Shown: in pieces, positions 15,289 through 19,271 of the stretch
How positions within the stretch are numbered: position 1 is the first letter of the stretch
How the letters are laid out: every line of letters starts with the position of its first letter
DNA from: a phage
Sequence record: PZ179883.1
Reading direction: 5' to 3' (one strand)
Length of the DNA stretch: 64,000 bases
Made by a program: the position numbers and the translations under genes
Notes under the pieces: generated by a model
Seen by the model: only the letters and a program-made list of their open reading frames with translations
Told to the model about the DNA's origin: nothing
The model's database searches: none

Positions 15289-15557
15289 TATTTAAAACGA
15301 ATAGTTGAATCCTTAAAGAACAGCCCAGAACATACTGTTCCTTCTACTTTCTGCCCAGTAGGTCCAATAGCACGAAATCCAGTATGTTGGAAATCATTTT
15401 CAGAACAACCGAACCAGTTATATCCAGTGATTTCAATATTAGTAAAACCGCTTGAAGACAAAACTTTGGTTGCATTATCAGCATCAGTACATCCTACTAA
15501 AGACACTGCTAATACTAATGCCGCGATAGAACGATTAATATATTTCATAATTTTCAC
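15288..15557 (-). CDS. Putative lipoprotein (89 aa)
   Basis: Signal peptide with lipobox LVGC (…AALVLAVSLVGCTD). Confidence 0.55.
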   Translation of the reverse strand: MKIMKYINRSIAALVLAVSLVGCTDADNATKVLSSSGFTNIEITGYNWFGCSENDFQHTGFRAIGPTGQKVEGTVCSGLFFKDSTIRFK

Positions 15558-15925
15558 TTAAATTTAATGGCTTGAAGAAGACTAATAATTCTCAAGCGAC
15601 TTCCTTCATCTTTAACTGTAAAAGAAAGAGGGTCACCAGATTTCATAGTGATAGTGCATTCAAAAGCAAAACCTTCGGGAACTTCTTCGAAGAAGTCAAA
15701 TTCTTCATCATAAATTAGAACATTACTCTGAAAACTGTGAAGAATTTTTCCGTCATTTCCAGATGCTGTACTAATCATTGTAACATTATTACCTTTCATA
15801 TCTTCAACGATAAATTCGCTTGTAGATATTACAGCATTAATAGAACCATTCCTATAAATAGCAGAAAATAGATATTTCTTTTCTTCACCTTCGCGAATGC
15901 GATATTTCTTACCGATTTTAAACAT
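15554..15925 (-). CDS. Hypothetical protein (123 aa)
   Basis: ORF in 39-motB interval. Confidence 0.55.
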   Translation of the reverse strand: MFKIGKKYRIREGEEKKYLFSAIYRNGSINAVISTSEFIVEDMKGNNVTMISTASGNDGKILHSFQSNVLIYDEEFDFFEEVPEGFAFECTITMKSGDPLSFTVKDEGSRLRIISLLQAIKFK

Positions 15926-16106: not shown

Positions 16107-16520
16107 TTATTCCTTAAAGTGAGCTTTCAACATCTGATACAAGGACCATGCCTGTTCATCATTTTCAATAGTAACTTTCATTACAGGGAATTTAGATTGA
16201 TCAGTTATCGGTGCAGATTCTTCCTGCTCTTCAGCTGCCTGGTATGGATTTTCAACTTCATTAAAGAATTCAGCTTCATTCGATGAAAGCCAAATAAAAT
16301 CTTCATCCAAAATATCTTTACCAGAAGATAGTACTAAATTTCCAGCAAATGACATAATTTTAATAGGACGCCCAAGAGCATCCACATCTAAAATTTTAAA
16401 AGGATGCATACCTAAACGGCGTGCATAGATTCCGTTATCAGTATGGTCTTTAATAAAATTTTCTTGAGCTTGTTTATTTTTAAATTGATACCATTTATTA
16501 ACTTCAAATTTAATAGCCAT
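16107..16520 (-). CDS. Hypothetical protein (137 aa), goF position
   Basis: Position and size roughly match T4 goF; identity not verified. Confidence 0.5.
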
Positions 16521-16735
16521 TAATAAATTTCCTTCCAGTAAGTTGTACCATCTTCAGTGATTTCACGAAATACACCGTAAATTGGTTGTTTATCCCCAAC
16601 CTTTTCATACACATAAACCGAAGTCAAGTGAGTAAACTTAGCAGTGTGTTCCTTTTGAACTACTACCAAATCTGGATCGAATAACACATCTTCAAATTCG
16701 TCATTAGTGCAGTTCTGAACAATTTTACGTTTCAT
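16520..16735 (-). CDS. Hypothetical protein (71 aa), cef position
   Basis: Size equals T4 Cef (71 aa); identity not verified. Confidence 0.5.
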
Positions 16736-16849
16736 TACAATTTCCTCGTTAATTGAACATTGGAGCGATGCGTTTCAGAAGAGTAGCAGCACCTTTGGCA
16801 AATTTTCCATTTTATTCTCCAAATTATTTTCTATATCAGTAGTTGATAT

Positions 16850-16905
16850 TGATATAGTACCATAATCAACTACTGATGTATATAGTTTTATGAAAAAATT
16901 TTAAA
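16850..16905 (-). promoter_or_regulatory. Early-promoter-like element with variant -35
   Basis: TGGTACTATATC -10 region with conserved leader, but -35 reads ATATAC rather than GTTTAC. Confidence 0.4.
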
Positions 16906-16907
16906 CT

Positions 16908-17399
16908 TTATGCATAGCGAGCTTTGCTGTAGTGTTTAATCCAACTTTCAGGAATGACTTTGTATGTTCCTAAAAATACCGCGTTGTATAACTTAACGCC
17001 ATCTTCTACCCATTGATCAGTAATGTATGCACACATAGCGCGAGTACGCCGAGGAAGTGGTTGTCCACCTTCGATAAATTCAAACTCATAAGGAGCAATG
17101 AACTTGATAGCTCGACCGAGTTTCCACTTAAAGTCTACACCTACATGCGAAGTATCAATCGTTTCAATTCCTTTAGCGGGAACAGCTTTCAAAAACGCAG
17201 ATTCAAGAAATTTCGCGCGAACATAACCAAACTGAGGTTTAGACTTTCCATCTTTAGGAATGATACGCACTTTTACTTCAGAATCTTCATCTTTAACGCC
17301 GTGTTTAAGCTGAATGCTTACAATTTCGACCAATTTTCCTGCTGCTTTAGAACGGGATTTATCAGATACACGAGCAATTTCACCAATATTAATAATCAT
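16908..17399 (-). CDS. motB: MotB (163 aa)
   Basis: 163 aa at the T4 motB position; shares the motif TDQW(V/I)EDGV with the next ORF. Confidence 0.65.
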   Translation of the reverse strand: MIINIGEIARVSDKSRSKAAGKLVEIVSIQLKHGVKDEDSEVKVRIIPKDGKSKPQFGYVRAKFLESAFLKAVPAKGIETIDTSHVGVDFKWKLGRAIKFIAPYEFEFIEGGQPLPRRTRAMCAYITDQWVEDGVKLYNAVFLGTYKVIPESWIKHYSKARYA

Positions 17400-17442
17400 A
17401 GTTATCTCTCACTTGTTAAAAAGATTTTATACTCCACAGGAC

Positions 17443-17475
17443 CATTATACTCTGGTCCCAAGAGTTTGTAAACTA
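17443..17475 (-). promoter_or_regulatory. T4-type early promoter upstream of motB
   Basis: GTTTAC (rc 17468-17473) and a perfect TATAAT (rc of 17445-17450). Confidence 0.6.
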
Positions 17476-18021
17476 TTAATTCAAAATAGCTACCACCGCA
17501 CTACGAGGTACTACACTAAAATCTCCTGCATGGACAACGTTCAGAAGCTCAACACCATCTTCAATCCACTGGTCTGTTACCCAACCACAGATAGGATTAT
17601 CAAAAGGACGACGGATAGACACAGCAGCACACAACAGGTCTGTAGGGTCTTGTTCTTCAACTTCTTGGAACAGGATGAACTCATCTTCATAAACCAGGTT
17701 TTTCTTTATTTTGTTATTATCTAACCGGCGACCGTGGATGACGTAAGATTTGTCAAACCACTCACTTTTGGCAAATTCTTCAACAATAAATTCGCCTTCG
17801 CCAAAAACATCAGTCAGAGTTTTATGACCAGAAATCAAGGCATTAGTTTTAATTTTAGGTTCAACCAGTTTGTAGGTTTTGCCGATTTCAATAGCGGTAG
17901 TCATAGTAGGTTCCTTAATTTCCAGTGGTTTAACAGGGCATACATAAGTGCTTACAACATCAAAATCAATCAGTTTAGCTACCGGATTTGGTGTGTATTC
18001 AGGATTATAATTAAATTTCAT
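17476..18021 (-). CDS. Hypothetical protein (181 aa), paralogue of the MotB C-terminal domain
   Basis: Motif CGWVTDQWIEDGVELLNVVH parallels MotB CAYITDQWVEDGVKLYNAVF. Confidence 0.6.
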   Translation of the reverse strand: MKFNYNPEYTPNPVAKLIDFDVVSTYVCPVKPLEIKEPTMTTAIEIGKTYKLVEPKIKTNALISGHKTLTDVFGEGEFIVEEFAKSEWFDKSYVIHGRRLDNNKIKKNLVYEDEFILFQEVEEQDPTDLLCAAVSIRRPFDNPICGWVTDQWIEDGVELLNVVHAGDFSVVPRSAVVAILN

Positions 18022-18023
18022 AA

Positions 18024-18524
18024 TTATCTCATTTCAATAAAATCTACGAGTTCAGCATGGGATTTACGGAACATTACTTGGTGCCCGCCAATGATAACTT
18101 CATCTTCAGGAACTTCGTATACAGCGAGATAAAATCCTTTAGAAGATAATTCTTCCCGCTCTTCTCGTGTGAACCATCTCATCATATCATATTCACTAGC
18201 GAAAGCAAAATGATAAAGAGCTATAAACCATCCTGGAATATGATATTCTACTCCAACATAATCTTTCTTGAACTTAGTATTAATTACTATATTAGCGTTT
18301 TTAACTAATAGTTTATCTTCGTGTGGTAAAGGAATTCTTTTATTATTATCGCTATGATGCATAAAATTAGGTCTGTCATAACCTACGTGTAATAACCACT
18401 CTTCGCTCCATGAATCTATTATACTCCTGTACGGCGTTATTTGAACACAAAGATTTCGACGTATTGTTATAGCATCTTCATAATTAAGAATACTAAAAGA
18501 TGATTCAACACGATAAATTTTCAT
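18024..18524 (-). CDS. Hypothetical protein (166 aa)
   Basis: ORF-track start at 18563 falls in the promoter -10; ATG at 18524 has SD GAGGATAA. Confidence 0.55.
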   Translation of the reverse strand: MKIYRVESSFSILNYEDAITIRRNLCVQITPYRSIIDSWSEEWLLHVGYDRPNFMHHSDNNKRIPLPHEDKLLVKNANIVINTKFKKDYVGVEYHIPGWFIALYHFAFASEYDMMRWFTREEREELSSKGFYLAVYEVPEDEVIIGGHQVMFRKSHAELVDFIEMR

Positions 18525-18547
18525 TTTATTATCCTCAGTAGCTATGG

Positions 18548-18585
18548 TGTTATAATACCACAACTAACCGAGGAAGTAAACAACT
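18548..18585 (-). promoter_or_regulatory. T4-type early promoter
   Basis: GTTTAC (rc 18576-18581) and TGGTATTAT (rc 18550-18560). Confidence 0.5.
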
Positions 18586-18587
18586 TT

Positions 18588-19271
18588 TTATCGTTTTGTT
18601 GGAAGAGATAGAGGATCGCACTCTTCTTCTGACGGAGCATCTTCAAGACCCATAGCATATCGCAAAGCATACTTCATCATCAGGATGTCTTTCGCACAGT
18701 CATGAATAGAATCATGCGCAACGAATCCATCTAAAGTTCCTTTTGGAAGAGGACACGTGGTCATATCACGAACAAGCAGAAGTGCTTCAATTCTGGTACG
18801 AATATCACGCTGATTCCAGAATTTACATGGTTCTAACTTAAATGTGTCAAGTTCATTCTCAGAAACACCATTAAGACGTTGAATATCACGAATGAGATCG
18901 ACTAAAATTGGAAAATCAAACGACATTCCACGGCACCAGCCTTGAGATTTCCAAGGATCGATATTATGTGCATTGATGTAATCATTAAATTTCGCAATAC
19001 CGTCGATAGTGCTTACATCTTCATCGGACGGTGCAATATTTTTTCGAGCTTCAGGAGACTGATTTTTCCACCATTCGATAGTGCTTTTAGTAAAAAGACG
19101 ATGTCCTTTTTGGCTTTTTAAATCAAATTTGATTTTAATGCCGCGTGAAACTAATTCATCAAATGTTTCAACTACTTCTGGGTTAGGGTCAAAAGCAATT
19201 ACAGCTAAATCAATAACAGCTGCTTTTTCACCACTTCCCATTGTTTCAAAATCTATAATAAAATCAAACAT
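18588..19271 (-). CDS. dexA: Exonuclease A DexA (227 aa)
   Basis: 227 aa; N-terminal DEDD-like exonuclease motif (FIIDFETMG); matches T4 DexA size and position. Confidence 0.9.
   Translation of the reverse strand: MFDFIIDFETMGSGEKAAVIDLAVIAFDPNPEVVETFDELVSRGIKIKFDLKSQKGHRLFTKSTIEWWKNQSPEARKNIAPSDEDVSTIDGIAKFNDYINAHNIDPWKSQGWCRGMSFDFPILVDLIRDIQRLNGVSENELDTFKLEPCKFWNQRDIRTRIEALLLVRDMTTCPLPKGTLDGFVAHDSIHDCAKDILMMKYALRYAMGLEDAPSEEECDPLSLPTKR

Follow-up and report, generated by a model that had tools for sequence, protein, structure and literature searches.

The window analysed here is the whole stretch of 64,000 nucleotides (64 kb) of record PZ179883.1, and it is that of a Tequatrovirus. The 3.3-kb region around motB and motB.1 was 99.4% identical to Escherichia phages D5505, G29 and G4500, and the same region had matches in 610 phage records. 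The genes lie on the minus strand in the order dexA, motB.2 homologue, motB.1 (181 aa), motB (163 aa), cef, goF, which is also the T4 order (dexA-motB.2-motB.1-motB-cef-goF):

18588-19271, minus strand: dexA, gene-order neighbour
18024-18563, minus strand: motB.2 homologue, gene-order neighbour
17476..18021, minus strand: motB.1-equivalent coding sequence, 181 aa plus stop (ORF list; phrog_2333, E 2e-89)
16908..17399, minus strand: motB coding sequence, 163 aa plus stop (ORF list; Pfam PF17613; phrog_1671)
16520-16735, minus strand: cef, gene-order neighbour
16107-16520, minus strand: goF, downstream, paralogue of the N-terminal barrel of MotB.1

The original prediction had named a 163-aa MotB and a 181-aa neighbour. 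According to the ORF list, the coordinates of both were right and both are on the minus strand. The neighbour, which had been left without a name, does exist and is MotB.1 in T4 nomenclature: the 181-aa ORF sits between motB.2 and motB, the position of motB.1 in T4. MotB matched Pfam PF17613 over its full length (327.3 bits, E 2e-98, profile positions 1-162), and homologues annotated as MotB were 89-97% identical. Both genes are found at the dexA-motB.2-...-cef early cluster location of T4-like phages. In some GenBank records, the 181-aa neighbour is named 'transcription regulator MotB domain-containing protein'.

The gap between motB.1 and motB comprises 76 nt and contains one promoter-like feature:

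17444..17472, minus strand: sigma-70 / T4-early-type promoter-like site TTTACA-17-TATAAT, 11/12 consensus positions

This site is oriented correctly for motB and was the best promoter-like match in 16500-18700; promoter-like sites overall were about as numerous there (8) as expected from shuffling (8.1). In the T4 gap, the promoter hexamers and the spacer are identical, with one substitution further downstream. T4 early promoters are described as excellent sigma-70 matches (PMC2988021), and the 11/12 match of the gap site fits this description. A published mapping of an early promoter or start site upstream of motB was not found in the accessible literature. An early promoter separating the two genes, as originally proposed, was thus recovered as a consensus match that faces motB and is kept in T4. 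At the level of the consensus, the gap would provide motB with a strong sigma-70-type promoter of its own.

Each of the two proteins could be divided into an N-terminal domain and a shared C-terminal domain, with an additional leader in MotB.1:

17917..17976, minus strand: leader motif KLIDFDVVSTYVCPVKPLEI, MotB.1 aa 16-35 (pLDDT <50, predicted disordered)
17656..17892, minus strand: MotB.1 N-terminal LSm/GoF-like barrel, aa 44-122 (phrog_622, BLASTP, AlphaFold2)
17485..17637, minus strand: shared C-terminal domain, MotB.1 aa 129-179 (hhalign range; AlphaFold2; Pfam match aa 140-176)
17536..17592, minus strand: core block CGWVTDQWIEDGVELLNVV, MotB.1 aa 144-162 (motif scan, BLASTP)
17196..17399, minus strand: MotB N-terminal KOW/SH3-like barrel, aa 1-68 (AlphaFold2, VS..SRSK.AG motif)
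16929..17123, minus strand: shared C-terminal domain, MotB aa 93-157 (hhalign range, AlphaFold2 strands)
16980..17036, minus strand: core block CAYITDQWVEDGVKLYNAV, MotB aa 122-140 (motif scan, BLASTP)

The core blocks CAYITDQWVEDGVKLYNAV of MotB and CGWVTDQWIEDGVELLNVV of MotB.1 were identical at 12 of 19 positions. After shuffling MotB.1 (300 shuffles), the best 19-mer identity had a mean of 6.6 and a maximum of 8. Pairwise BLASTP of the two proteins aligned 33 residues without gaps (16 identical, 23 positive, E 5e-11). A comparison of the MotB family (29 sequences, 38-97% identity) with the LSm-type MotB.1 family (13 sequences) by hhalign returned one match with 98.3% probability, an E value of 1.7e-14 and 51 columns. 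It pairs MotB 93-157 with MotB.1 129-179, where MotB.1 lacks 13 residues of a hairpin. Hence, the near-identical block predicted near both C-termini is real, but its extent was underestimated: the homologous region comprises 51-65 residues, not ~19. Since the homology spans 51 columns, the similarity is not confined to fewer than 10 residues without flanking conservation. The conserved core of the shared domain reads D-L-L, G-W/Y, TDQW-EDG-V-L-N-V and V-P. A motif scan of the 64-kb window found no third copy; the motif occurred in MotB and MotB.1 only.

MotB.1 also matched the Pfam motB profile (34.6 bits), but only at positions 117-153 of 162. Both proteins exceeded the PF17613 gathering threshold of 25 bits, and MotB.1 matched the MotB PHROG (phrog_1671) with an E value of 1e-16. 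The Pfam model represents full-length MotB (KOW and C-terminal domain), of which MotB.1 matches a part, and therefore the shared domain has no Pfam model of its own. All MotB.1 homologues listed (at least 120) carry PF17613 in the precomputed annotation.

The placement of the hairpin by MAFFT, in pairwise and mixed-family alignments, gave inconsistent partner residues in MotB.1 and was rejected in favour of the hhalign register. The latter was accepted because bridging sequences and the AlphaFold2 strand maps agree with it. The bridging sequences P0243 and P0246 begin with a DPTDLL start of the MotB.1 type and continue with a PVEFEF hairpin of the MotB type. On these alignments, the C-terminal domains of MotB and MotB.1 are homologous.

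The AlphaFold2 model of MotB (mean pLDDT 79) consisted of a barrel at aa 8-67, a disordered linker at 69-82 and the C-terminal domain. The model of MotB.1 (mean pLDDT 76.5) had a disordered leader at 1-41, a barrel with an inserted helix at 49-121 and the C-terminal domain. The C-terminal strands were predicted at 97-108, 117-132, 135-142, 145-150 and 154-157 in MotB (pLDDT per 10-residue block 77-94, mostly >84) and at 133-136, 144-154, 157-164, 167-172 and 176-180 in MotB.1 (pLDDT >90). With the hhalign offsets, the five strands of the two models coincided one for one. At an offset of +22, MotB 122-132, 135-142, 145-150 and 154-157 correspond to MotB.1 144-154, 157-164, 167-172 and 176-180. 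The structure prediction thus agreed with the proposed shared domain, with five strands in register in both proteins. The beta1-beta2 hairpin was longer in MotB than in MotB.1. Its tip is the sole part of MotB that differs markedly between the window phage and T4.

A Foldseek search of predicted viral structures (BFVD) with the MotB.1 model returned its own family, T4 P39415 and MotB of phage G9062, the last with an E value of 3e-7 over ~174 columns. Against the PDB, both models found two-barrel proteins: tandem Tudor (53BP1, UHRF1), Agenet (AGDP3), SAWADEE and Spt5 KOW. These matches were weak (best E 2e-3 to 4e-3, TM 0.2-0.4), though the probability was 0.95-1.0 for the top Tudor and Agenet matches, whose TM was 0.24-0.40. 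For MotB.1, eIF5A ranked 31-49 with weak E values of 3e-2 to 6e-2; it was absent among the best 50 PDB matches of MotB. Profile searches gave no meaningful sequence relatives among PDB chains for either family. A sub-threshold Pfam match of the cold-shock type (Rrp44_CSD1, E 0.076) fell in the N-terminal domain. Like archaeal/eukaryotic IF5A (SH3-like plus OB), the tandem KOW of Spt5 and the tandem Tudor of 53BP1 and UHRF1, both AlphaFold2 models contain two five-stranded barrels in tandem, but the matches between these proteins and the window models are weak (E at least 2e-3, TM 0.2-0.4, 8-15% identity). HHpred has assigned the MotB C-terminal domain to the OB-fold, of the cold-shock DNA-binding-like type, and has also pointed to aIF5A and Spt5 KOW for MotB (PMC7827196). 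From the models, the shared domain could be an OB-fold, as in the HHpred assignment, or an SH3/Tudor-like barrel.

The N-terminal domains were of different types. In MotB, strands were predicted at 8-11, 23-30, 41-46, 56-61 and 65-67, and the VS..SRSK.AG motif, which is conserved across the MotB family, was present. The KOW assignment of this domain was made by HHpred (PMC7827196). MotB.1 lacks the KOW-like barrel with VS..SRSK.AG. Its N-terminus has the five-stranded GoF-related sheet of the GoF/MotB.1/Frd.2 LSm-like family instead, with strands at 49-52, 77-85, 92-99, 105-111 and 118-121 and the inserted helix at 60-73 (AlphaFold2, pLDDT 78-88). It matched phrog_622, the GoF family, over aa 44-125 (E 3e-4) and the window ORF 15554-15925 in BLASTP (28% over 86 aa, E 5.6e-4). 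This agrees with Kim et al. 2025 (PMC12152347), who described the MotB.1 N-terminal domain as an LSm-like fold together with GoF and Frd.2; their work covers the N-terminal domain only. The leader motif of MotB.1 follows the pattern [IV]D.D[IV]..[ST][MT]Y...P, which in other members is located between the N-terminal and the shared C-terminal domain.

There was no profile-profile match between the N-terminal halves of MotB and MotB.1, as hhalign returned the C-terminal match only. MotB.1 is therefore a partial, domain-level member of PF17613, since its N-terminal domain is GoF-like and does not align to that of MotB. The two N-terminal halves had been called unrelated, and in sequence they are (hhalign, phrog_622). 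This is not necessarily true of the fold class, because both N-termini are small beta-barrels and the Foldseek match to G9062 MotB covers ~174 columns.

A profile search with the shared domain identified 28 representatives (50% identity clusters) among 1.84 billion proteins. This profile search of representatives replaced a search with the 60-aa C-terminal domain alone, which had given five candidates. Three matches lay in very long proteins (P0252, P0253 and P0255; E 2e-5 to 1e-4, each over several stretches) and were set aside as probable repeat or low-complexity matches. By tblastn, 773 of 50,697 phage records contained the MotB.1 domain and 772 contained MotB; without exception, these were T4-like enterobacterial phages.

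The shared domain occurred in five architectures: KOW barrel, linker motif and MotB.1-type C-terminal domain; LSm barrel and C-terminal domain, as in T4; leader motif, LSm and C-terminal domain, as in the window MotB.1; two LSm barrels and C-terminal domain; and forms with a further N-terminal domain in front. It was located in the dexA-cef slot at every phage locus inspected, with one to three tandem copies depending on the genus. In Klebsiella phage PWKp18 (Marfavirus) and in Edwardsiella phage PEi26 (Kanagawavirus), a single gene with KOW and a MotB.1-type C-terminal domain is flanked by dexA or motB.2 on one side and by cef on the other. RB69 carries three copies in a row, namely motB.1, motB and a second motB. 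Regarding the presence of both copies in T4 and relatives, T4 has both and the relatives have one to three.

The shared domain, the different N-termini and the proposed duplication are already known: they were published in 2021, and the annotation in Pfam, PHROG and GenBank reflects them. Patterson-West et al. 2021 (Viruses 13:84; PMC7827196, section 3.2) stated that the two proteins share a C-terminal domain, differ in their N-terminal domains and likely arose by duplication. The homologues were sorted into categories by N-terminal domain, and 40 other phages carry both genes (PMC7827196). The window has the same two genes in the same order as described there for T4. The difference is in MotB.1: the window protein comprises 181 aa with a 41-residue leader and a different N-terminal domain, and T4 MotB.1 is common to it only over the last ~75 residues. 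The window MotB.1 may correspond to 'Category 4' of that study. A tandem duplication at the same locus had been published earlier for RB69 (RB69ORF010c/motB; Nolan et al. 2006, PMC1524935). In RB69, the whole gene (KOW and C-terminal domain) was duplicated, whereas only the C-terminal domain is retained in the window.

The MotB.1 entry of the T4 reference (AF158101.6/NC_000866.4) comprises 119 aa and ends in ...WVTDQWIGRWR (UniProt P39415, 13.8 kDa). It is this short because of one extra G inside the shared motif (ATTGGAAGATGG versus ATTGAAGATGG); the next frame continues EDGVELLNVVHAGEYSVVPRSAVVAILN. Eleven other T4/T4T records among the matches listed all matched the 451-nt query over 450 nt, which fits a single missing base. 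The two that were aligned, MT984581 and KJ477684, both lack the extra G, and in MT984581 MotB.1 is annotated as a protein of 143 aa whose domain is complete. In the 119-aa form, the three final strands of the shared domain are missing. Judged by these records, it is an artefact or a peculiarity of the reference record.

Frame changes were also found in RB69. Its record has two of them in the shared domain, resulting in a 132-aa MotB.1 and the 29-aa ORF012c, which is the 'Category 3' peptide of PMC7827196. There is also an intact version of 164 aa (P0240). The two frame changes explain the 29-aa 'Category 3' peptide of RB69 as a frameshift remnant.

The age of the duplication was assessed from codon comparisons. 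Over the 33-codon block, the two window copies had a nucleotide identity of 57%, with 13 of 33 third positions identical (39%). The duplication is thus old because the synonymous sites between the copies are saturated. The C-terminal domain of MotB.1 in the window and in T4 differed at 20 synonymous and 9 non-synonymous codons of 60, with none in W147-G166. The excess of synonymous differences and the unchanged core point to purifying selection on this domain. Taken together, the codon comparisons show an old duplication whose two copies are both under selection.

We consider it very probable that motB and motB.1 are the product of an old tandem duplication in place, with the first barrel exchanged and the second one shared. 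The local duplication with domain shuffling that had been suggested from the sequence fits the adjacent and co-oriented genes and the relatives, which have tandem copies with varied N-termini in the same slot. In this reading, each protein would consist of two small beta-barrels and a flexible segment. The second barrel would be homologous, with five strands and ~51 residues in MotB.1 and ~65 in MotB, the size gap stemming from a first hairpin that is 13 residues longer in MotB. The first barrel would have been exchanged, being KOW/SH3-like in MotB and LSm-like (GoF/Frd.2 family) in MotB.1. Both genes would be early genes. The ancestor was likely one KOW-linker-CTD gene in the dexA-cef slot, a state that Marfavirus and Kanagawavirus phages still show. 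This gene would have been duplicated in place, after which one copy gained an LSm-type N-terminus. In this most economical history, the new N-terminus would be an LSm-like barrel of the GoF family; paralogues of this barrel, goF (16107-16520) and ORF 15554-15925, are just downstream. The direction of these events is likely as given, based on the ancestral architecture in few genomes and without a rooted tree.

Three other explanations of the shared block were weighed against the old tandem duplication. A chance or convergent similarity, in which two small proteins rich in beta strands share a short motif favoured by composition, would fit the packing of the strongest identity into ~19 residues. 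We give practically no credence to it: the E values were 5e-11 (BLASTP) and 1.7e-14 (hhalign), shuffling reached a maximum of 8 instead of the 12 observed, intermediate sequences exist and the predicted strand order is identical. The block could also be a recent gene-conversion or recombination patch between otherwise unrelated neighbours. In its favour, the two genes are neighbours with the same orientation, recombination is very active in T4-like phages, and phage BYEP01 (P0125) has a deletion that fuses motB.2 to the C-terminus of motB.1. However, recent conversion is ruled out by the 57% DNA identity of the block and the 13/33 third positions (39%). Moreover, the similarity, including the indel, spans the whole domain in hhalign, and each paralogue forms its own conserved lineage in hundreds of phages. 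Conversion is thus a very improbable origin.

A mobile C-terminal module that was fused separately to different N-termini is somewhat less implausible, but still improbable. Here, the adjacency of the two genes would reflect insertion into a permissive, hyperplastic region. The same C-terminal domain is found behind at least four N-terminal architectures, the short linker motif shifts its position relative to the LSm domain, and the dexA-39 region is non-essential and variable (PMC7827196). On the other hand, the domain was in the dexA-cef slot at all inspected loci, the family had no members outside T4-like phages (28 representatives), and RB69 has plain tandem copies of motB. The mobile module and the old tandem duplication differ in the order of events only.

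The two proteins differed strongly in charge. MotB has a net charge of +9 and a pI of 9.6, and both of its barrels are basic (+5 and +5). MotB.1 has a net charge of -10 and a pI of 4.8, with -6 in the C-terminal domain. According to PMC6070864 and PMC7827196, DNA binding by T4 MotB is tight and non-specific, and the protein co-purifies with H-NS/StpA and has a positive effect on fitness. The two basic barrels of MotB would jointly account for this DNA binding and for the reported H-NS-associated nucleoid remodelling. In MotB.1, the acidic shared barrel would be paired with an RNA-chaperone-like fold. The N-terminal barrels would then supply the specificity, for DNA in the case of KOW or possibly for RNA in the case of LSm. 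A structural or partner-binding scaffold would be the more likely role of the shared barrel, rather than a DNA-contacting surface, because the MotB.1 barrel is acidic and the invariant core TDQW-EDG is acidic or aromatic. This charge argument is weak, since members of the MotB family range from -7 to +4 in the net charge of their C-terminal domains.

Some of the results have modest practical value. With the domain boundaries (MotB 93-157, MotB.1 129-179) and the hairpin indel defined, the shared domain could be given its own model and clean constructs could be designed. Kim et al. 2025 (PMC12152347) cited a 13.8-kDa monomer, the 119-aa T4 reference form, had the genes synthesised and used NC_000866.4 coordinates for the phage constructs. 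Going by the cited mass and coordinates, their plasmid-expressed MotB.1 may be missing the three final strands of the shared domain. The 143-aa form is the one to use in functional work on MotB.1. Tentatively, and with considerable doubt that all parts hold together, the shared barrel might be a scaffold or partner-binding module specific to T4-like phages (e.g. for a nucleoid protein or self-association) and not a generic DNA-binding OB-fold, coupled to either KOW or LSm. If the 119-aa form was indeed used in the published heterologous tests, an activity of MotB.1 may have been missed.

The motB.1 gene of the T4 reference record (NC_000866.4; positions 2292–2651 of excerpt L002) contained one extra G within the TDQWIEDG motif compared with the window (17476–17640). 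The extra base cuts the protein to 119 aa, and this short form is UniProt entry P39415 (‘13.8 kDa’). A 451-nt query was matched over 450 nt by all other T4 and T4T records listed (11 of 11). Both aligned T4 records (MT984581 and KJ477684) lacked the extra G; in these, MotB.1 is 143 aa long and the shared C-terminal domain is complete. The 13.8-kDa form appears to be the one used by Kim et al. 2025 (PMC12152347).

RB69 motB.1 (AY303349.1; positions 2480–2680 of excerpt L006) was affected by two frame changes inside the shared domain. These led to a 132-aa MotB.1 and a separate 29-aa ORF012c; in PMC7827196 the latter is the ‘29-aa Category 3 peptide’. The homologue P0240 is an intact 164-aa counterpart. 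The frame changes are probably either a sequencing error in this old record or the mark of a pseudogene.

In phage BYEP01, a 43-aa ORF (P0125) joins the start of MotB.2 directly to the end of MotB.1: approximately the first 16 residues of MotB.2 (MKIYRVESSFSIL.YED) are followed by the last 27 of MotB.1 (EDGVELLNVV...). Such a fusion implies that a deletion from one short repeat (YED) to the other (IED) took out most of motB.2 and most of motB.1.

The MotB proteins of the window and of T4 were near-identical apart from the tip of the β1–β2 hairpin:

16983–17093, minus strand: variable hairpin segment, MotB aa 103–139 (YEFEFIEGGQPLPRRTRAMCA versus CEFNFIKDDGRVVYTRAMCG in T4)

This tip is precisely the segment missing from MotB.1, and thus represents a local hypervariable loop.

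Upstream of motB, the −10 hexamer of the promoter-like site is flanked by an inverted repeat:

17438–17459, minus strand: inverted repeat GGGACCA ... TGGTCC(T)

The T4 version is perfect (GGGACCA/TGGTCCC). In read-through motB.1 transcripts, the repeat would fold into a hairpin whose loop holds TATAAT. Another GAGTATAAA element lies 12 nt further on, and it is this second one that RB69 keeps.

The N-terminal domain of MotB.1 also matched phrog_622, the PHROG of GoF, and two further features of the early-gene cluster belong here:

15554–15925, minus strand: 123-aa ORF, a further LSm/GoF-like barrel paralogue (BLASTP to MotB.1)
16107–16520, minus strand: GoF, a phrog_622 member

The 123-aa ORF aligned to MotB.1 aa 45–123 with 28% identity over 86 aa (E=5.6e-4). 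Together with GoF and the MotB.1 N-terminal domain, this makes at least three barrel copies in the cluster.

In the representative search, three very long proteins (P0252, P0253 and P0255; 829–2607 aa) gave weak matches to the shared-domain profile in several stretches each (E=2e-5 to 1e-4). These may be repeat artefacts, or they may be distant cellular relatives of the barrel.

The disordered leader of MotB.1 carries a short motif:

17917–17976, minus strand: [IV]D.D[IV]..[ST][MT]Y...P.(K)P[LI], MotB.1 aa 16–35

In other family members, including P0239, P0240, P0246, PWKp18 and PEi26, the motif follows the N-terminal barrel and precedes the shared C-terminal domain, and MotBs with long linkers carry a related DGYVCESNDIRG insert. 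The leader motif may represent a short linear interaction motif, one that travels with the family.
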